Part shown: piece by piece, positions 2,235 through 52,070 of the stretch
Numbering within the stretch: the first letter of the stretch is position 1
Layout: every line of letters begins with the position of its first letter
Origin: Eledone cirrhosa
Lineage: Eukaryota
NCBI GenBank assembly: GCA_964016885.1
Contig: OZ024742.1
Coordinates: forward strand, 326,616,001-326,680,000
Length of the DNA stretch: 64,000 bases
Reading direction: 5' to 3'
Position numbers and translations under genes: made by a program
Notes under the pieces: model-generated
What the model was told of the DNA's origin: nothing
Seen by the model: the letters and a program-made list of their open reading frames with translations, nothing else
The model's database searches: none

Positions 2235-2371
<137 letters not shown>

Positions 2372-2435
2372 CGTAAAATAAGAAAATATTTTTTTTTTTT
2401 AATTTTTAAAAAGTGTTTTACTTACTTAAATTTTC

Positions 2436-2517
2436 ACTCCAACTAATTAGTTTCTGCAATGGGATAAAGACAGTTACGTAATCCAACTGTCGAGAATTCA
2501 TTGCGTCATCAGGGAGT
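2436..2517 (-). ncRNA. Type I hammerhead ribozyme (family A)
   Basis: Reverse complement of 2882-2963. Confidence 0.85.
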
Positions 2518-2881
2518 CTATTCTCAGTTAAGTCTCCAGGCAATGCGCGGACACTGGCGGCTCATATAAAAATAATAATAATTCGGTAGATCGAACAGCT
2601 TGCGAGGACTGGATTCTATGTACCGAAATTCTCACTGCTTCAAGTCAAATGGCCGATTCTAAAGATTCAATCACGTGACACAGAGGCTAGTTAGAAGGAA
2701 TGGGATGGTAAGATGACTGACGCCTACTAACACCCCAAAAAAAAAGTTTTTTTAGAAGTGGTTTTGGCAAGTTTGCTCGACAAATCAGTGTCCTCGCAAG
2801 CTGTTCGATCTACCGAATTATTATTATTTTTATATGAGCCGCCAGTGTCCGCGCATTGCCTGGAGACTTAACTGAGAATAG

Positions 2882-2963
2882 ACTCCCTGATGACGCAATG
2901 AATTCTCGACAGTTGGATTACGTAACTGTCTTTATCCCATTGCAGAAACTAATTAGTTGGAGT
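2882..2963 (+). ncRNA. Type I hammerhead ribozyme (family A)
   Basis: Stem I ACTCC/GGAGT; core CTGATGA; stem II GCAATG/CATTGC with inner hairpin GACAGTT/AACTGTC; GAAA; palindromic stem III ACTAATTAGT; GTT cleavage triplet. Confidence 0.9.
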
Positions 2964-3133
2964 GAAAATTTAAGTAAGTAAAAAATTTTTTAAAAATTTT
3001 TTTAAAAAAATATTTTCTTATTTTACGTCTTTTATATTATTGTTCTGCATTCTCCTGCATTGAACCACCTAGGTACTATGACATAACCTGTGTATTTGCT
3101 AGCATGGGCGTGCATCTGTGCGCTTATGTTAGT

Positions 3134-3212
<79 letters not shown>

Positions 3213-6190: not shown

Positions 6191-6619
6191 GTGCTACTGG
6201 TAACATGTAATCCAGTACAACCTGTCTCGTGGTGGGTCGTCGGTGACTAAACTGGCAACACCACCAAGCTTGTTTGGTGAGGAGGGTGATATTTGGACGC
6301 CCTGCGGGATGAAATACAAGACCCGGAGAAGGGCGGAGGAACTCAGCAAAGTCAACGGTCATCCATATAGTACTTTTTTTCCACCTGGGAGTGAAAGGCC
6401 CCCAGTTGTTGTCACAAAACCTTTCTAGAAGAAGGAAACTCTTAAAAAACAAACCTGTGGCTTCGGAAGAATCCGATGATGTTGACCAGTCCTCCATTTC
6501 GGGTAGTGTTTTCGATGTTCAGAGAGTGGGTTTGGACATACATACATACATACATACATACATACATACATACATACATACATACATACATACATACATA
6601 CATACATACATACATACAT

Positions 6620-7380
6620 GGAGTTCCGACAAGTTTATGATATCACACCTCTATGAAATACAGGAACAAGAACTCCTTACCAAATGTCTGCTGCACAAAA
6701 GGGGAGGGCCATCAGCTGACAATAAATGTAGGCTATGTAAAACAAAGATCGAGGATGTAAGCCACATTGTTGCCAGCTGCGAAAGAATGTCATCTCGCTA
6801 CTACCTCCCCATGAGACACGATGGGATAGCTAGAACCATCTGGAACGCACTTCGGAAAACAAAATTAGCAACAAACGAGGAAGAATATATTAAGACAGAT
6901 GGCACTAAGGAATACTGGTGGAACCGGAAAATAAAAACTGACACCAAATTAAAGCACAACCGGCCTGATATTGCTGTTTGGGACCACACATTGAAAACGT
7001 GTTCTGTTGTGGAGATCAGCTGCCCACTTGATGTAAACGTTGTGAGAAAAATACAGAAGGAGGACATATACGGACCATTATATGAGGAGTTTACAAATCC
7101 AGTATCCAAGATACACCTTTAGCTTCATACCCATCATTATTGGAGCTACGCGTTAAATACCAACCAGCTTGGACTAAAGTATGACTGAACTTGGATTTGC
7201 GGACAAAGAGCGCAGCTCCCTAATTCATAGTCTACAAATGGCTGCGATAGCTAGCACCTTCAAAATTTGCAAAACATTCTTGCGATTCAAGGGATGACAA
7301 TTTCTTTTCTTTTACAACCTTGCCACCAGGAAGGTGGCCGGTCAAAAAAATATACTCGAAATTAAGAGAAAGAGATAACA
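6620..7380 (+). pseudogene. 3' part of an RLE-type non-LTR retrotransposon (R4/Dong-like)
   Basis: CCHC knuckle CRLC..EDVSHIVASC, RHD motif, RPDIAVWD..VVEISCP..K PD-(D/E)xK endonuclease. Flanked by (TACA)n. Confidence 0.85.
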
Positions 7381-9438: not shown

Positions 9439-10100
9439 CTAACAGCGCTGCGATCGAAAGTGGCTTTTTAGCCCAGCCAATGACCTAAAATGTCTTGCAC
9501 AGAGTCGGCAACCAAAACATTCACTGGGAATAGTCGGCTGTGGTTGGAGTTCGTGTACTTTTGCATGTCGCTTGAGCCCTCCTGCTGATTTACATTCTCT
9601 ACCACATGTTTGGCAAGCATGATGAGTAGCATCTCCAACAGCAGCCTGGTAGTCAACCACTGGTCTTACTTTATGACTGCGAAGATGACTTTCGAGTCCA
9701 GCTTTGCTTAGGCAGAGTCTCGCACAGACGCTGCATGTCAGCACCATAGGAGGACCCTCGCCGTCTGGAAGTGCAACAGCAATGCCCTTTCTCACATCCC
9801 GCTTTACTTTCTCGTATGCGATTAGAGGTGCCTCAAAGGCAACTTTTCCCTCATATACAGTCTTTCTCCATTTATTACGATCAGCAGCAATATTTTCCCA
9901 TGTATCAGCAGAGATGTTAGCGTCTTTCAGAGAGGCTTTCAAGGAATCCTTATACCTCTTTTTTGGTTTATGTGGCGGTCGTTTTCCTTTAACCAACTCT
10001 CTATAAAAGAGTTGTTTTGGTATTCCAGAATCCTTCATCCTGGCAAGGTGACCACTCCAACGGAGTCGTTGCTTAAGCACAAGAGCTTCTATACTGTCAC
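9439..10100 (-). pseudogene. 5'-truncated RTE-clade LINE C-terminus with three C2H2 zinc fingers
   Basis: LRWSGHLARMKDSGIPKQLFY..GKRPPHKPKKRYKD, then CSVC..H..H, CQTC..H..H and CRLC..H. A matching 3' tail lies at 9105-9146. Confidence 0.85.
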
Positions 10101-10167
10101 ACATACATACATACATACATACATACATACATACATACATACATACATACATACATACATACATACA

Positions 10168-10577
10168 TGGTGGCTGCCAACTCGTTTTCGAGTACGGCCA
10201 CTACTTTATATCCATGTAGGAGAACCCCTACCGATGCGCTGAACGAGTGTGACTTTTTAGTCCAGCCAGCGACTTGAAAACTCTGGTACAAACACTACAC
10301 TTGTGACAATTATTGACACATAGTGCTTTACCTTTGGTACCATGTGACGACAAGTGCAGAGAGATCTCCAGATACAAAGCAATGCCTGTGCCGTGAAGCT
10401 TTTATAGTGAGCAAAGGCACTGCACAAAGCCAGTCCCACTCTCTTAACCAAGATGATATTTACCAAAAAGAAGAACAAGTCAACATCATTGGATACCATC
10501 AGGGTTGCAGGTGTTATATCAGAGTTTTCCTTCTCCTAGAATTCTGCCTTGACAAAGGCTAAGGGGTCATCTCTCCC
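10168..10577 (-). mobile_element. 5'-truncated family R copy
   Basis: Matches 173-582. Confidence 0.8.
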
Positions 10578-16948: not shown

Positions 16949-17008
16949 AACACTATGCACATTTCAATGACCGGGCTCTGCAAGAACCCGGTGACTTCAT
17001 CAGGTGTT
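16949..17008 (-). ncRNA. Type I hammerhead ribozyme
   Basis: AACAC CTGATGA AGTCACCGGGTTCT-TGC-AGAGCCCGGTCATT GAAA TGTGCA TA GTGTT. All three stems form. Confidence 0.85.
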
Positions 17009-19912: not shown

Positions 19913-19956
19913 TTAGAATTGGTGCTCTGAAATAACGATATATATATGAATGTTTA

Positions 19957-20230
19957 TGTAGTGTATTTTGCAATACACTGTATGCTTAATTAAAAGCATT
20001 TCGAAGACCTTACGCTATTGTTTTAGAGTAGTGACAGTCTCACTTACTTTAAATTTTCAGCAAACAGGGGAGATAAAGCTGACAGAGCTCTGTTTCGTAC
20101 TTGTTGGTACTTATCACCCCTATTTGCTAAAAATGTAAAGTAAGTGAGACTGTCACTACTCTAAAACAATAGCGTAAGGTCTTCGAAATGCTTTAATTAA
20201 GCATACAGTGTATTGCAAAATACACTACAT
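19957..20230. mobile_element. Fold-back element with a 5'-clipped hammerhead in the loop (20077-20116, minus)
   Basis: Arms 19957-20070 and 20117-20230. Loop on the minus strand reads TGATAA GTAC-CAACAA-GTAC GAAAC AGAGCTCT GTC. Confidence 0.7.
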
Positions 20231-20235
20231 GTACA

Positions 20236-20284
<49 letters not shown>

Positions 20285-20288
<4 letters not shown>

Positions 20289-20480
20289 AAGGAGTTGTGG
20301 TAAGGAACCAAGTGGACTATAACGCACCAGAGTACTCAATACTTAGGGTAGTAGAGTGGGTAATAGGAAAATGTATGGCCCCGACGGCAGAGCTCAAGCC
20401 GTTTCGACGGCTATTTCTGAACCACAAAATAGCCGTCGAAACGGCTTGAGCTCTGCCGTCGGGGTCATACATTTTCATAT
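20285..20480 (-). mobile_element. Family F copy
   Basis: Homologous to 17959-18136; palindrome ~20367-20477. Confidence 0.75.
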
Positions 20481-20713: not shown

Positions 20714-20814
<101 letters not shown>

Positions 20815-22414
20815 GATAGATAATTTAATATATCAACTAACATAAGCGCACAGATGCACGCCCATGCTAGCAAATACACAGGTTATGTCATAGTACCTAG
20901 GTGGTTCAATGCAGGAGAATGCAGAACAATAATATAAAAGACGTAAAATAAGAAAATATCTTTTTTAAAAAAAAAAATTTTTTTTTAATTTTTTTACTTA
21001 CTTAAATTTTCACTCCAACTAATTAGTTTCTGCAATGGGATAAAGACAGTTACGTAATCCAACTGTCGAGAATTCATTGCGTCATCAGGGAGTCTATTCT
21101 CAGTTAAGTCTCCAGGCAATGCGCGGACACTGGCGGCTCATATAAAAATAATAATAATTCGGTAGATCGAACAGCTTGCGAGGACTGGATTCTATGTACC
21201 GAAATTCTCACTGCTTCAAGTCAAATGGCCGATTCTAAAGAATCAATCACGTGACACAGAGGCTAGTTAGAAGGAATGGGATGGTAAGATGACTGACGCC
21301 TACTAACACCCCAAAAAAATTTTTTTTAGAAGTGGTTTTGGCAAGTTTGCTCGACAAATCAGTGATTTGGAGATAAATATAGATAATTTAATATATCAAC
21401 TAACATAAGCGCACAGATGCACGCCCATGCTAGCAAATACACAGGTTATGTCATAGTACCTAGGTGGTTCAATGCAGGAGAATGCAGAACAATAATATAA
21501 AAGACATAAAATAAGAAAATATCTTTAAAAAAAAAAAATTTTTTTTTTTAATTTTTTTACTTACTTAAATTTTCACTCCAACTAATTAGTTTCTGCAATG
21601 GGATAAAGACAGTTACGTAATCCAACTGTCGAGAATTCATTGCGTCATCAGGGAGTCTATTCTCAGTTAAGTCTCCAGGCAATGCGCGGACACTGGCGGC
21701 TCATATAAAAATAATAATAATTCGGTAGATCGAACAGCTTGCGAGGACTGGATTCTATGTACCGAAATTCTCACTGCTGGAGTGAAAATTTAAGTAAAAA
21801 AATTTAAAAAAAATTTTTTTTTTTTTTTAAAGATATTTTCTTATTTTACGTCTTTTATATTATTGTTCTGCATTCTCCTGCATTGAACCACCTAGGTACT
21901 ATGACATAACCTGTGTATTTGCTAGCATGGGCGTGCATCTGTGCGCTTATGTTAGTTGATATATTAAATTATCTATATTTATCTCCAAATCACTGATTTG
22001 TCGAGCAAACTTGCCAAAACCACTTCTAAAAAAATTTTTTTTCGGGGTGTTAGTAGGCGTCAGTCATCTTACCATCCCATTCCTTCTAACTAGCCTCTGT
22101 GTCACGTGATTGATTCTTTAGAATCGGCCATTTGACTTGAAGCAGTGAGAATTTCGGTACATAGAATCCAGTCCTTGCAAGCTGTTCGATCTACCGAATT
22201 ATTATTATTTTTATATGAGCCGCCAGTGTCCGCGCATTGCCTGGAGACTTAATTGAGAATAGACTCCCTGATGACGCAATGAATTCTCGACAGTTGGATT
22301 ACGTAACTGTCTTTATCCCATTGCAGAAACTAATTAGTTGGAGTGAAAATTTAAGTAAGTACAAAAATTTTAAAAAAAATTTTTTTTTTTTAAAGATATT
22401 TTCTTATTTTACGT

Positions 22415-22420
<6 letters not shown>
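20815..22420. mobile_element. Family A multimer: ~1.7 minus-strand monomers (563 bp period) fused to ~1.1 plus-strand monomer
   Basis: HHRs at 21012-21093 (-), 21575-21656 (-) and 22263-22344 (+). Inversion junction at 21778/21779. Confidence 0.9.
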
Positions 22421-22489
<69 letters not shown>

Positions 22490-23074
22490 TATATAATTAA
22501 TATATATATATATATATTAATTGACGTGTGTATGGAGTTATATACTATATGTTTATGTATAGTAAACTTACATAAGCTCCGTCATGGATATATTAAGCTG
22601 TGATTATAAGAAAGCTACATGAGTAGTCAGAGACGTATTTTAGTATTTTTATTCATCATCTGTAACGTCTACTAACTCAGTGCTAAGACAAGGATAGGCT
22701 ACAACTTATATACAAATAAAATACCCATTTGCATATAGTGTGAGCTTCACCACCTAGCTATGAACATTGTAAACTTCATTATGAATCACGCTGAATCAAT
22801 ACTAGAGCTAATTAACCCTAGCCGGTCAAGCTCGCATTGTGTACAAATGTTCCTCTCCAGCAAAAGTTTTATTCACAAATATTATATAAGCTGTAGAGTG
22901 TTGTTAGACACGTGATGGAATAATGGACGTAAAGGAAGTGAGTGAAGGATATGGAGAAAAAGAGAGAGTAGAAAAGGGGGGATCAGAGAAAAGAGGTGGA
23001 GTCACGTTTTGATTGAATTAAATAAAAATGAAAGCGGACTATCTATCTATGTCTATCTATGTCTATCTATCTAT

Positions 23075-23821
23075 CTCCCTGGCCTGGCAGTGCTGCCGAG
23101 GAGCTCTACCAGTTCGAGACAAGCTCTACAGACACGGGCGTCCGGGCAGGGACCCTTCGAAAAAGATCTGTCCGAGATGCGTGCGCGACGAGGAAACCGT
23201 CGCTCACGCATTTGTACACTGCCCGGGCGTTACCGATCTGTGGGGCTATGTAGAACGACTATTGTCGCGGGTGGGACCAATCCGGTTGACCACCGAGTCC
23301 ATTGTCATAATCAAACCGCCACCCACCTTCAAAAACGAAGGAGAGGCGGTTTTCCTTTGTGTGATAGCTATGGCGAAAGAGATTGTATGGTGGACGAGGT
23401 TAAAAGGGCTGAGGTCAGACACCTTTCTCTCCGGCGAACAACTGATTCTTTTTTTCAAATACCACTTTGGAAGAAGAATCAGGATGGAGAGAGAGGTGCT
23501 GTACCCTAGCAAGTTTTATGAAAGGTGGGTGAAAGTAGCGAGAATGGTCCGAGTGAATGGGCCTTCTCTCTATATCAGCCTGTAGGTTGAGGAAAAAGAG
23601 GAAGAGAGGAAGGGGTTACAAACTCTTCGTACTCCTGGAGATGAGGGTTGCACATGTTTTTCGGGAGTATGTGTTACCCATATGAAATGTCTCCCCCTAT
23701 TGGGGAAAATCGACTAACTGTTTAATTACATTTGTGATAATATTTTACCCGTTTTATTGTATATAAACTTCCCCCTTTGTATTTGTCCCCTTCTTTTGTG
23801 CCCCTGTGGCTAATAAAGAAA
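23075..23821 (+). pseudogene. 3' end of a Tx1/L1-like LINE (zf-RVT/CCHC domain plus 3' UTR)
   Basis: LAWQ..RGALPVRDKL..CPRC..EETVAHAFVHCP, stop at 23585, tail CCCCTGTGGCTAATAAAGAAA. Flanked by CTAT repeats. Confidence 0.8.
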
Positions 23822-34321: not shown

Positions 34322-34416
<95 letters not shown>

Positions 34417-34420
<4 letters not shown>

Positions 34421-35362
34421 GACGTAAAATAAGAAAATTTTAAAGATTAAAAATCAACTTACTAAAGTTTTCACTCCAACTAATTAGTTTCTGTAAGGGG
34501 ATAAATATAGTTACATAATATAACTATAGAGAATTCTTTACGTCATCAGGGAGTCTATTCTCAGCTAAGTTCCTAGGCGATGCGCGGACACTAAGAACCC
34601 ATATAAAAATAATAATTCAGTGGATGGGATAAAGCTAGCGAGGACTAAATTCCAGAGCACTGAAAAAATTCACTGCCTCTGGTCAGTGGCAGATTCTAAA
34701 TTTTACGTCTTTCATATAATTGTTCTGCATCCCCCTGCATAGAACCACAAAGGTACTAAGACATAACATATATATTTGCTAGCATGGGTGTACATCTGTA
34801 CATATATGTTGGTAGATGTACTAATTCTCTATATTTATCTCCAAATTATTTGTTGAGCAAAACTTGCCAAAATTTACTGCTGATTCATGGTAGTAGTAGG
34901 CTCTTGTCATAATACCACCCCGCTCCTAACTGATTAACCTCAGTATCACGTGATTGATCCTTTAGAATCTGCCACTGACCAGAGGCAGTGAATTTTTTCA
35001 GTGCTCTGGAATTTAGTCCTCGCTATCTTTATCCCATCCACTGAATTATTATTTTTATATGGGTTCTTAGTGTCCGCGCATCGCCTGGGAACTTAGCTGA
35101 GAATAGACTCCCTGATGACGTAAGGAATTCTCTATAGTTATATTATGTAACTATATTTATCCCCTTACAGAAACTAATTAGTTGGAGTGAAAATTTTAGT
35201 AAGTTGATTTTTAATTTTTAAAATTTTCTGATTTTACGTCTTTCATATAATTGTTCTGTATCCCCCTGCATAGAACCACAAAGGTACTAAGACATAACAT
35301 ATATATTTGGTAGCATGGGTGTACATCTGTACACATATGTTGGTAGATGTACTAATTCTCTA
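34417..35362. mobile_element. Diverged family A subfamily, fold-back insertion
   Basis: HHRs at 34473-34554 (-) and 35107-35188 (+). Same terminal point AAAGACGTAAAATAAG as the 2366 copy. Confidence 0.85.
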
Positions 35363-35427
<65 letters not shown>

Positions 35428-39339: not shown

Positions 39340-41621
39340 GATTAACAAATAATAGTTAAATGCAGTCCACTTAGGTGAAGTCCAGTTATGGTATTCCAGG
39401 TAGTGGATGATATAAACGCTTGGCTTGGTTTGACTCAACAAGGCATTTTCATAGTGATGCTGCGGGTATGCCGTAATTCCTATGTTGTAAACACTTGGAG
39501 TAATAATAAATCAGGAAAGAAGGTTTACATGGTTTGCTATACAAAAAAGATTTTAATCACATAGCTTACATTTGTTTCACTGAACTGGTCTGTCTAGAGA
39601 TCGCTATTCGCTTAATTTTGCGTTACTCGATCGCCAATACAGAATTATAACCAGTCAGATCTTCGGAGCATGCGAGAATGAAGAAAATACACAGGCAAGA
39701 AAAGAAAAGAAAATACAGGCTACTATATGAAGTAGTAATGGCATTCAATTAGAACAATAACAACAATTACAACAATGCTATCAATAAACTATTTAAGGAG
39801 ACCCTGACATTACTTAGGTGGGGGTATATAATGTATCTAATGTTACGGCGTGTAAAACTAGCTGTCATAAGGCAAAATGAAGCGTTGGCATGTACAAAGT
39901 ATCGTAGTGTATATCAATTTTAAATTATAAAGATAAGCTAGTTTTTACAGTCTTTCTCTTCATCTTCAACAGTATACATGAGTGGGACCACTGTCAAAGC
40001 TAAATAGTTGTTGAGTTAATACAGAGGTTAACGAATTAATATACGCATATATTTACGCACACACACACATACACACACACACACGCGCTATTTTGTGCAG
40101 CTTTTACATTCCTGTTTAGTACTCTGTTATAAGTCGGTTGTGATATATGCCCAATGGGGTTTTACTGCTGCGCGTTTGTATGCGCTTGTGGTTGTGATGT
40201 TGTGATGAGTTTGTGCTTATGTATAGGTGCAATTGATTTACTAGAGATATTTCTGTGGTTGATCTTGCGTATGTGTGATTCTATGTTAGCTGCTGTTGAG
40301 AATGAGAGTTTTATAGTAGATCTATTGAGTATTTTGTGATATCTATGCGAGATAGGGAAGTGTTTATCTATTAGTTTAAAGAATGTAGAGGGCAGTCTAG
40401 TTTTTATAGAGGAGTTGAATATTGGGTTGAACCATAGGTATTTTCTTTGTCTGTTTCTTCTATAGTTTCTTGGGTTTACGTTATTAGTGTTTTGGCCGTT
40501 TACTCCAGGTGTTACATGTCTAACCCTATGTCTAGTCAAGCTATTCCTATTATTATGTGAGCGGTTGGAGTAGTAATTACTAGGATTGTTTATGTTGTCC
40601 TTATTCACTATATACTGTAGTTTATCTTTATGGCCGGCCCTACTTAATGCTGCATTATAATAGTCAGCATGCTCGTTAAAGATTTCTAGGTTTGAGGATA
40701 AGCGGGATATTCGGAGGGATATACTACGTGCTATGGATTTAATTATGGATTTGGGGTGATTTGAGTTGTAACTAATGTAGGCAAGATTTTCATTATTTTT
40801 GTGGAAAGGTTCTATTAGTCCAGTATTTAGATTTAGAGTTACATCTAGAAAATTTACCTTCTTATGGTTTAGTTCGTAGGTAATACTTAGGCCTAGTTTT
40901 TTGAAGAATATTCTAATATTTTTCCTTAGTCTTTCCATGCTCTGGTTGTTTAGGTTCCTAGCTATAAGTAACGTGTCGTCCCTATAAATTCCTCCTTGGA
41001 GGTTACTGAATTCCTTATGTAGGTTGTGTGCTATGAATAGCCCCACGATATCTGTGATTTGCGCAGAATCATTTGATCCCATTGTTATATCGAAGCTATT
41101 TATTCTATCCTTTCTTACCCAGTAGTTATTTTCAAATTTTATGATAGTCCTTCTAGCCGCTATTATTATTTCAATTTCATCATGGGTAAGATCAGAGTTA
41201 TTTTGGGCAAATATAAGCGCCTTATCTAGGGTAGCTGGGGATATGGATGCATAATAGTCGTCTATATCAAATTGTATGAAGTTACACGTCTCCCTATTTT
41301 GTATTTTATTGAACCATTTAATTGCCTCGTTAGTGTTGCCCCATAAATTGATTTCTAGTTTACCCTTTATTTGTGTGATTACCCTATCTAGAATGTTCTT
41401 GCTAATTTTACCTATGTCTGACTTGGATGGGCATATTAATCTAATGGTGGGATTAGTTTCAAAGTTATTTTTGTGATCCTTCAGGTTAAATGTTACTTTA
41501 CCTTCTTTTTGCCATAATTACAATTAGCACGCTTATCTCTTTGCATGTATGTATATTTTTGTACGAGTGTATATTGATGTGTATGTATGTGTCTATGTAC
41601 ACATGCATGTGTATATATGTG

Positions 41622-41658
<37 letters not shown>

Positions 41659-42214
41659 ATGTGTGTGTGTGCGTAAATATATGCGTATATTAATTCGTTA
41701 ACCTCTGTATTAACTCAACAACTATTTAGCTTTGACAGTGGTCCCACTCATGTATACTGTTGAAGATGAAGAGAAAGACTGTAAAAACTAGCTTATCTTT
41801 ATAATTTAAAATTGATATACACTACGATACTTTGTACATGCCAACGCTTCATTTTGCCTTATGGCAGCTAGTTTTACACGCCGTAACATTAGATACATTA
41901 TATACCCCCACCTAAGTAATGTCAGGGTCTCCTTAAATAGTTTATTGATAGCATTGTTGTAATTGTTGTTATTGTTCTAATTGAATGCCATTACTACTTC
42001 ATATAGTAGCCTGTATTTTCTTTTCTTTTCTTGCCTGTGTATTTTCTTCATTCTCGCATGCTCCGAAGATCTGACTGGTTATAATTCTGTATTGGCGATC
42101 GAGTAACGCAAAATTAAGCGAATAGCGATCTCTAGACATACCAGTTCAGTGAAACAAATGTAAGCTATGTGATTAAAAATTTTTTTGTATAGCAAACCAT
42201 GTAAACCTTCTTTC

Positions 42215-42218
<4 letters not shown>
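39340..42218 (-). mobile_element. Penelope-like element fragment flanked by ~560 bp inverted pseudo-LTRs
   Basis: Arms ~39511-40080 and 41650-42218. HHRs with CCGAAGA core at ~39563-39670 (-) and ~42058-42166 (+). Confidence 0.85.
40162..41490 (-). CDS. PLE reverse transcriptase (5'-truncated, no GIY-YIG visible)
   Basis: Open frame LKDHKNNF..RLICPSKSDIG..FDIDDYYASI..FDITMGSNDSAQITDIVG..GGIYRDD..NFLDVTLNL..SNHP..WFNP. Confidence 0.85.
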   Translation of the reverse strand, partial: FNLKDHKNNFETNPTIRLICPSKSDIGKISKNILDRVITQIKGKLEINLWGNTNEAIKWFNKIQNRETCNFIQFDIDDYYASISPATLDKALIFAQNNSDLTHDEIEIIIAARRTIIKFENNYWVRKDRINSFDITMGSNDSAQITDIVGLFIAHNLHKEFSNLQGGIYRDDTLLIARNLNNQSMERLRKNIRIFFKKLGLSITYELNHKKVNFLDVTLNLNTGLIEPFHKNNENLAYISYNSNHPKSIIKSIARSISLRISRLSSNLEIFNEHADYYNAALSRAGHKDKLQYIVNKDNINNPSNYYSNRSHNNRNSLTRHRVRHVTPGVNGQNTNNVNPRNYRRNRQRKYLWFNPIFNSSIKTRLPSTFFKLIDKHFPISHRYHKILNRSTIKLSFSTAANIESHIRKINHRNISSKSIAPIHKHKLITTSQPQAHTNAQQ

Positions 42219-42291
<73 letters not shown>

Positions 42292-42963: not shown

Positions 42964-43159
42964 TAACTGAAATATCAGAAACCATTACTCCGAGCTTCAC
43001 GTGGTCGATTTTTAAAACAACGTTGTTTTAAATAACTGTATGTATGGAAATATATACAACATATACAATATATTCAATTAATACATATTTAATCTTGTTG
43101 CCAAACTATAAGTATGTATAGACCCGTAAATCTTAATGGAGTCGTAGGCGCTGAAATGA

Positions 43160-44399
43160 CATGTGGTGTGTTTGGGGTATGTTATACCTTTCCGTGTCTA
43201 AACACAGTGGATTTCTTACAGAGAATGGGGGAAAGAGTGATGGCGAGCAGGTGAGAACCAAATACAAAGAAAGAATCGACCACAGTATTGGACTGTTACT
43301 TTGCTTATCGACATTAAAAACATTAGAACTCAGAGCGAATACAGCATAGCAATCTACCCAGTGTTTCTAACTACTTTACCAATTAGCTGCCTTTTGAAAA
43401 TACAATCTGTGAAACCAAGAACTTTGAAAGAAAATGAGTGCAGCGCAAATTCTCTGGTAGTGTAATGATTACGTCTCTTTATGTTCTGAGTAATCAAGAT
43501 GGAGAAATAATTTTTTCTATATCGACCCCCGTAAGGATGAAAGGCAGAATTAACATCGGCGGGATTTGAACTCAGGTCGTAAAGGGACGTAACTCTATGC
43601 TGGAAAGCATGGCATTCGACTCTCCACCGATACTGCCAATAAATAATTGTTTCTATTTTTTGTACAAGGCCAGCAATTACCCAGTACATTACTGGTACTT
43701 TATTTTATCGACCCCGTAAGGATGAAAGGCAAAGTTAACCTCGGCGGGATTTGAACTCAGTTCGTAAAGGGATGTAACTCTATGCTGGAAAGCATGGCGT
43801 CCGACTCTCCACCGATACTGCCAAGAAATAATTGTTTCTACTTTAGGCACAAGGCCAGCAATTACCCAGTGCATTACTGGTACTTTATTTTATCGACCCC
43901 GTAAGGATGAAAGGCAAAGTCAACCTCGGTGGGATTTGAACTCAGATCGTAAAGTGACGTAACTATGCTGGAAAGCATGGCGTCCGACCCTCTACCGATA
44001 CTGTCAATCCACCGCCTTTTATCCTTACGGGGGTCGATATAGAAAAAATTATTTCTCCATCTTGATTACTCAGAACATAAAGAGACGTAATCATTACACT
44101 ACCAGAGAATTTGCGCTGCACTCATTTTCTTTCAAAGTTCTTGGTTTCACAGATTGTATTTTCAAAAGGCAGCTAATTGGTAAAGTAGTTAGAAACACTG
44201 GGTAGATTGCTATGCTGTATTCGCTCTGAGTTCTAATGTTTTTAATGTCGATAGGCAAAGTAACAGTCCAATATTGTGGTCGATTCTTTCTTTGTATTTG
44301 GTTCTCACCTGCTCGCCATCACTCTTTCCCCCATTCTCTGTAAGAAATCCACTGTGTTTAGACACGGAAAGGTATAACATACCCCAAACACACCACATG
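43160..44399. repeat. ~380 bp inverted duplication enclosing a tandem trimer of SINE family 1 (43522-44016, minus)
   Basis: 43160-43538 is the reverse complement of 44021-44399. Confidence 0.85.
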
Positions 44400-44699
44400 C
44401 CAAGAAATAATATCTGCCCTTCACCCTTGTGGTAACACTAAATTATGTACTGGTCTACTTTTACTTTTTTTTCCATTTTTGAAAATATTTTCAATGCTTA
44501 CGTCTGCAGAAATAGTTCTGTTCATATTTTTTTAATGGCCATCGAGTTGTGTGAGAGTGTGATAGACGCGGTTGATCATCTTGAATAACTATTACTTAAT
44601 AGCTGAAGGGAAAATGTGAGCATGGTGGAAATTCTAGACGATTAACGTCTGTGAAGAAAGGATTTGGCTTAGTAGATAGTGTGACGTCAAAATATATAA

Positions 44700-51667: not shown

Positions 51668-51703
<36 letters not shown>

Positions 51704-51780
51704 AATATATATATTAGAAAGTGAGGTTCTTTTTACAAAATGAAAAATAACCGAGGTGTCCTACACGAGTGAAAGTATAA

Positions 51781-52066
51781 AGAAAAAAGGATGAAATCGA
51801 AAATGCAACTGGAGTCTTATTTAAAAAAAATATATATATATTTATTTGGTTCCTTTACCGGTTTCGCAGTTCTTCTGCTTTTCAAAAGTAGAGTTGAGAT
51901 GGACGGTCTGTGGTTTTTATCAGATGTGAGAAAAACCACAGACCCTCCATCTCAACTCTACTTTTGAAAAGCAGAAGAACTGCGAAACCGGTAAAGGAAC
52001 CAAATAAATATATATATATTTTTTTTAAATAAGACTCCAGTTGCATTTTCGATTTCATCTTTTTTT

Positions 52067-52070
<4 letters not shown>
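51781..52070. mobile_element. ~140 bp-arm palindrome carrying a hammerhead 3' half
   Basis: Arms 51781-51918 and 51930-52070. The right arm has GAAAC CG GTA with palindromic ACCGGT. Confidence 0.6.

Follow-up and report, generated by a model that had tools for sequence, protein, structure and literature searches.

A head-to-head retrozyme junction at a predicted hammerhead cut site in Eledone cirrhosa, and a modest family-wide excess of breakpoints at that site

We analysed a window of 64,000 nucleotides from Eledone cirrhosa (GenBank assembly GCA_964016885.1, contig OZ024742.1, positions 326,616,001 to 326,680,000 of the forward strand), in which an element made of two head-to-head arms lies between (TA)n microsatellites (Table 1). 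Judged by its sequence, the element is a non-LTR retrozyme with a 561-nt unit and a predicted type I hammerhead ribozyme. It belongs to a known kind of element, and what is gained here concerns mechanism, not a new class of element. The unit has a GC content of 35%, its longest ATG-initiated ORF is 29 aa, and it holds no ORF combining a reverse transcriptase (RT) with a GIY-YIG domain.

Table 1. Features of the two-armed element and its flanks (positions of the window)
Feature	Position	Strand	Basis
Left (TA)n target microsatellite	20714..20811	.	TRF array 20714-20833 and sequence
'204 arm', ~970 nt; 5' end at monomer 363, 3' end at ~+204 joined to (TA)n	20810..21778	-	blastn
Predicted type I hammerhead, intact, cut 21017/21016	21012..21093	-	CTGATGA at 21088; extent taken from the plus copy
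Predicted type I hammerhead, intact, cut 21580/21579	21575..21656	-	CTGATGA at 21651
Head-to-head junction, T21778 common to both arms	21778..21779	.	sequence and blastn
'82 arm', ~640 nt; full 561-nt monomer and ~82 nt more, 3' end at (TA)n	21779..22424	+	blastn
Variable A/T tract immediately 3' of the cut (monomer +7 to +55), where 5' ends cluster across the family	21785..21835	+	stop rates
Predicted type I hammerhead, GUU cut 22339/22340	22263..22344	+	sequence parse and fold
Right (TA)n target microsatellite	22418..22517	.	TRF

In monomer coordinates, the minus arm consists of 363-561 (21778-21580), 1-561 (21579-21017) and 1-204 (21016-20810). It crosses two intact predicted hammerheads before joining (TA)n at 20810. 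The plus arm begins with GGAGTGAAAAT at 21779, that is, at +1 of the predicted cut. It runs through one cut-to-cut monomer (21779-22339, 561 nt) and about 82 nt more before the (TA)n; the BLAST match ends at 22424 and the TA array starts at 22418.

The layout agrees with what a sequence-only reading of the window had described. The two minus-strand units are indeed 563 bp apart (anchors 20819 and 21382), and the plus arm does start on the first base 3' of the GTT triplet, with 21779 matching the sequence that follows 22337-22339. The single T of microhomology claimed for the junction was also found (T21778 fits both arms), as was the full 561-nt monomer running through the next hammerhead. In the plus copy the triplet GTT occupies 22337-22339 and is followed by GGAGT at 22340-22344.

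An Rfam scan of the window gave no match at the gathering score, and the hammerhead call is that of a manual parse using hammerhead numbering and the NUH rule. For the plus copy, the parse by hand gives a 5-bp helix I, CUGAUGA, an extended helix II, GAAA, a palindromic helix III and the GUU triplet. The element carries three intact motifs, one per tandem unit. Helix II is paired in 15 of 15 variants, and at 2 of its 6 pairs the changes compensate each other. The covariation score over these variants was 0.219 against 0.095 in shuffles, a difference inflated by their relatedness; they were picked for diversity and all carry the core by construction. A C.A mismatch lies at the base of helix II, and this mismatch together with the GUU triplet suggests a slow ribozyme. 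Helix III corresponds to a 12-nt palindrome at -12 to -1, which ends exactly at the cut.

Similar motifs occur elsewhere in the window. CTGATGA followed by a short hairpin and GAAA was observed at 17003 (minus strand), 17553, 18972, 19411 and 46853, and these sites resemble minimal Penelope-type hammerheads of other families. Two inverted-repeat elements between (TA)n arrays (19950-20250 and 20330-20480), one of them with a hammerhead-like palindrome, probably represent other Penelope-derived families.

Across the 3.0-Gb genome we counted 925 exact joins of +82 to (TA)n, 1,121 exact joins of +204 to a TA or TC microsatellite and 5,261 intact predicted cut sites. On contig C1, 186 elements were traced: 92 through an exact +82 end, 73 through an exact +204 end and 21 through an intact ribozyme. 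Each search contributed the first 100 places on its list, apart from the final 7 of the +82 search and a few of the +204 search, and 6 loci gave no anchor. The 3' ends of the family adjoin (TA)n or (TC)n, a join on which part of the sample was selected.

The two-armed shape was observed in 105 of the 186 traced elements. Their arms end at +82 paired with +204 in 92 cases and at +82 twice in one; 12 were left unresolved. Two single insertions (G000:C3:9136067-9143316 and C7:66873361-66877673) have arms of about 11 and about 7 tandem units. A target-site duplication is unreadable inside (TA)n. An assembly artefact is unlikely, because the shape recurs in all of these elements, with different junctions. 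Four contig-only runs found the repeat in organism A, plus traces of it in three others; none of the listed pieces spans the junction and the runs are uninformative.

The paired +82 and +204 ends, the inverted 5'-truncated arm and the microsatellite bias fit the insertion signature of Penelope-like elements (PLEs), described in the accessible part of PMC8557442 as an inverted 5'-truncated copy, a tail and a (TA)n bias. According to the available portion of PMC11167929, the PLE protein cuts both strands and extends them, with two internal sites serving as RT starts. By analogy, the two arms were likely made by a Penelope-like RT priming from both ends of the cut target.

Two further copies of the family lie in the window and are two-armed as well. 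The arms of the copy at 2362-3161 start at monomer positions 213 and 393, away from the cut, and those of the copy at 34413-35372, which belongs to an older subfamily (~76% identical), at 339 and 65. Assuming uniform ends, one would fall into the 2-3 nt at the cut with a chance of 0.7-1.1% per two-armed element and of 2-3% across the three family elements of the window.

In the traced sample, 8 arm 5' ends out of 257 (in 7 elements) fall between -2 and +1 of the cut, where the background stop rate predicts 1.4 (Poisson P = 9.5e-5), the 3-nt width having been set after the cut-site searches had been seen. The 257 ends come from the 165 elements selected by their 3' ends; with the 21 ribozyme-selected elements added, 8 ends stand against 1.5 expected. 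Stops occur at the background rate in the neighbouring windows (+2 to +6, and -3 to -13). Stops at the cut number 8 against about 272 read-throughs, or about 3% of passes.

Away from the cut the breakpoints are non-uniform too. The A/T tract from +7 to +55 holds 69 ends, or 0.0044 per nt against a background of 0.0017 (2.7-fold), and five 3-nt windows inside it equal the cut count of 8. A second hot spot, monomer 525-527, falls on the loop of the hairpin that the extended helix II forms and takes 7 of the 257 ends. Most inverted junctions overlap by 1-3 nt. The first sample (loci L031-L120) had one end at +1, one at +2 and no clear peak; 7 of the 8 cut-site ends come from later, +204-selected loci.

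Such a pattern could mean that the excess is a by-product of uneven joining, governed by microhomology and the adjoining A/T tract, and that the junction in our window is coincidental. The tied windows, the hot 525-527 segment, the short overlaps and the flat first sample would all be expected on that account. Yet the background rate from +2 to +6 sets the cut peak apart from the A/T tract, ends are enriched at the G-rich start and not in the 13 A/T-rich nt upstream of the cut, and nine double-ended loci (see below) stand against one in the control. We therefore consider this explanation improbable.

Pausing offers another route to an end at +1. At the 3' edges of 14 predicted helices (one of 16 bp) we observed 0-4 ends each, against 9 at the cut, and general RT pausing at hairpins was rejected for this reason. 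A narrower version holds that the RT pauses, or the cDNA is trimmed, at the 12-nt palindrome of uncleaved RNA, acting either as helix III or as an intermolecular dimer duplex. A stall at the 3' edge of the palindrome would likewise yield a +1 end. About 97% of passes read through, and joins through the whole palindrome do occur, among them several rows of the -20 to -10 control described below; both are in keeping with a pause. However, the palindrome is an A/U-rich hairpin of 4 bp (12 bp as a dimer), and stronger helices of 8, 11 and 16 bp collect 0-3 ends at the 3' edge, a number close to the background of 1.4. In addition, the double-ended +1 junctions, with their blunt or A/T-spaced joins, resemble run-off products. 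This alternative seems to us unlikely, if less so than uneven joining.

A genome-wide search was made with a pattern that requires the post-cut sequence and leaves the normal upstream bases free. It returned 43 rows, or 36 events after 7 duplicates were dropped by eye; 30 rows were verified by script. Matches to only 0-2 upstream bases (3 of 11 positions) account for 21 of the 36 events, and the other 15 are spread over the next 8 positions. The excess at the cut is thus 3.7-fold (P = 8.8e-5, or 1.9e-4 without one same-strand deletion). An earlier, narrower search had given 14 rows, 8 of them with the start at +1.

A control at -20 to -10 gave 186 raw rows, above the cut count, and only 11 of 30 of its loci are of matching subfamilies. 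The detection chance is about 0.6 at this control and 0.25 at the cut, and the normalised rates are about 10 events per position against about 30; the control falls to about a third of the cut rate only after this normalisation. A second control, at -38 to -30, gave 11 rows. The check proposed in the sequence-only reading, enrichment of 5' breakpoints at GTT^GGAGT, has therefore come out positive, at about 4-6-fold in two differently ascertained sets.

We also found nine loci in which both arms start exactly at +1, where the same search design at position 541 found one (P = 0.011). Three of the nine have no spacer, four a single A/T, one AT and one AA/TT. Five are minimal (+1 to +82 and +1 to +204), in three the +82 arm is longer by one monomer, and one is of ambiguous structure. 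In three of the nine, then, the arms differ by a whole monomer and both stop on one base; the plus arm of the window element resembles those with the longer +82 arm. In the traced sample, 5 of 92 elements have two arms that end within 2 nt of one linear position, where permutation gives 0.55. The double-ended loci and the coincident arm ends together point to physical RNA 5' ends.

Bases added at run-off could account for the A/T spacers, by analogy with R2, for which the accessible text of PMC3774820 reports that bases are added when the RT runs off its template. The T that precedes GGAG could be templated, a microhomology or an added base, the two bases before the cut being U as well. In some junctions the microhomology extends into GGAG.

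Run-off could be taken further, with multimers arising through end-to-end jumps of the RT on cleaved monomers and every internal junction being a record of cleavage. This would account for the multimers and the +1 stops together, and the base-adding habit of the R2 enzyme makes it conceivable. Internal junctions, though, are exact in 273 of 285 cases; 11 more differ by substitutions only and one has an extra base, whereas the terminal +1 junctions often carry an extra A/T. These near-universal exact internal junctions disfavour end-to-end template jumping, which we regard as very improbable.

An autonomous partner was sought among 50 loci (30 of them GIY-YIG loci and 20 long-ORF regions), and none was contiguous with or homologous to the unit. 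The genome holds 10,596 GIY-YIG candidates, of which 150 were scored. Two loci, L323 and L344, were rejected as partners: family sequence lies nearby and no join to the ORF was found, at L344 as a separate insertion beyond a TA array. Among the ORFs of the window, none of the 10 of 29 that were scanned encodes a Penelope RT.

One locus, L336 (G000:C1:145869800-145876800), carries a near-intact Penelope-like element with a frame of 938 aa holding RT as well as a GIY-YIG domain at its C terminus. A direct repeat of 1,050 bp flanks the ORF and carries a hammerhead. On our own reading of its cysteine linker, the family appears Neptune-like. Its predicted minimal hammerhead has the U3-A8 core variant described in the accessible part of PMC4209133, and its 3' ends lie at about +80 and about +145 after the cut. 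An RT/GIY-YIG protein of this type is a candidate driver of the 561-nt family, and a candidate only. Alignments of the regions after the cut revealed no convincing homology. The alignment of the unit with the PLE scored 48 against a maximum of 43 in 200 shuffles, over unrelated A/T-rich stretches outside the tail; the corresponding alignment with family B was equalled by 3 of 200 shuffles.

For the L336 family, with 334 rows, we tallied the first 100; 35 of them fall at the cut, where 21 would be expected (2.0-fold, P = 0.0012). This count was made by eye with 30 rows verified, duplicates kept and some rows representing local duplications. It gives weak support in the same direction. A second retrozyme family (L337:6010-6919 and L085:550-1190) has a unit of 457-459 nt with a full type I hammerhead, and its 3' ends, read by eye at two loci, lie at about +85 and about +195, a spacing near that of the 561-nt family. 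In three unrelated families the predicted cut lies upstream of the first RT start by about 80 nt, suggesting a conserved geometry between ribozyme and primer.

The window itself contains, at about 51700-52070, head-to-head 3' ends of the candidate autonomous Penelope-like family. Each has a predicted minimal U3-A8 hammerhead, and the ends lie about +80 and about +145 after the predicted cut, in (TA)n. Other features of the window include matches to zf-RVT at 23022-23585 and 6313-7122 (plus strand), which are 3' fragments of LINE-type elements, and an open frame on the minus strand (9439-10200) that matches C2H2 zinc fingers several times and is likely an exon from a zinc-finger gene of the host. 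Long near-perfect inverted repeats were observed at 39506-42223 and 43157-44402, with arms of 579 and 389 nt; the former encloses an open frame of 451 codons with no Pfam match.

Taken together, the excess at the cut site is best explained by run-off from the 5' end of self-cleaved RNA, and we think this explanation probably right. A Penelope-like enzyme would cut the (TA)n target, and each target DNA end would prime reverse transcription at one start site, +82 or +204. The two cDNAs would then be joined head to head through 0-3 nt of microhomology or a few added bases. Most templates, being uncleaved multimers or ligated circles, would be read through at the ribozyme site. In a few percent of passes the RT would run off a self-cleaved 5' end, often leaving an extra A on the cDNA that is read as T before GGAG. 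Germ-line cleavage would thus be a minor route and not a required step.

For the junction at 21778/21779 itself the claim has to be weaker. An excess of 4-6-fold means that about three quarters to five sixths of cut junctions stem from the excess process. Discounted by the chance that cleavage is not the cause of that excess, this leaves about even odds that the plus arm of the window element stopped at a self-cleaved RNA end. The minus arm crosses two intact ribozymes, so one RNA with both starts in the same unit cannot give both arms; the element calls for either two RNAs or a partly cleaved multimer with the start sites in different units.

The sequence-only reading had treated this junction as evidence that cDNA synthesis ended at a self-cleaved 5' end and that the ribozyme was active in vivo. 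The modest family-level excess speaks for cleavage; as proof, a single junction was overstated. The inversion is no product of cleavage either, being the ordinary shape of a Penelope-like insertion.

More broadly, the breakpoints may form a genome-scale, nucleotide-resolution record of germ-line hammerhead cleavage in Penelope-mobilised RNAs, with cleaved linear RNA being reverse-transcribed from both target ends; we weigh the case for and against this as equal. If it is true, breakpoint mapping becomes a read-out of in vivo activity for such ribozymes in any genome. A reproducible cut-site excess is a cheap test, from sequence alone, of what the hammerhead does, and it puts a number on cleaved RNA as a template: only a few percent of passes.

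Earlier work bears on this from several sides. The role of the hammerhead in Penelope-like elements is stated to be unclear in the accessible part of PMC8557442. According to the available portion of PMC11167929, insertion in vitro did not depend on cleavage, and none of the RNA reads had its start at the cut. One of nine predicted retrozymes cleaved, according to the excerpted text of a preprint (bioRxiv 10.64898/2026.07.22.740005; Li, Clavereau and Pollet 2026), and in vivo processing of animal retrozyme RNA is documented for other species in the accessible part of Cervera and de la Pena 2020 (PMC7229834). We found no breakpoint map of this kind in the literature covered, and in their accessible parts neither PMC7229834 nor the preprint maps insertion ends or 5' breakpoints; the supplements of the preprint could hold data on insertion ends.

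As far as the accessible parts of PMC7229834 and bioRxiv 10.64898/2026.07.22.740005 describe them, metazoan non-LTR retrozymes share with our element non-coding tandem units with one type I hammerhead each, low GC, a palindromic helix III, the lack of LTR features and the co-occurrence of Penelope-like elements. The 561-nt unit is longer than the 170-400 nt RNAs of the former source and inside the 51-972 bp range of the latter. Accumulation as linear and circular RNA is a further mark of non-LTR retrozymes.

With Neptune-type Penelope-like elements, as presented in the available portions of PMC8557442, PMC11167929 and PMC4209133, the family shares partial tandems, an inverted 5'-truncated arm, two 3' ends, (TA)n targets and a hammerhead located shortly upstream of the RT starts. 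It differs from them in that its unit has no ORF, its tail is about 122 nt instead of 30-40 nt, its hammerhead is full instead of minimal, and its tail region has no sequence homology to the candidate driver. The closest parallel to the junctions themselves is R2, in which, following the accessible text of PMC3774820, 5' junctions likewise fall at a ribozyme cut and show microhomologies or bases added after run-off. In R2, however, an HDV-like ribozyme sets the 5' end of full-length copies, while here the hammerhead would set only about 3% of ends.
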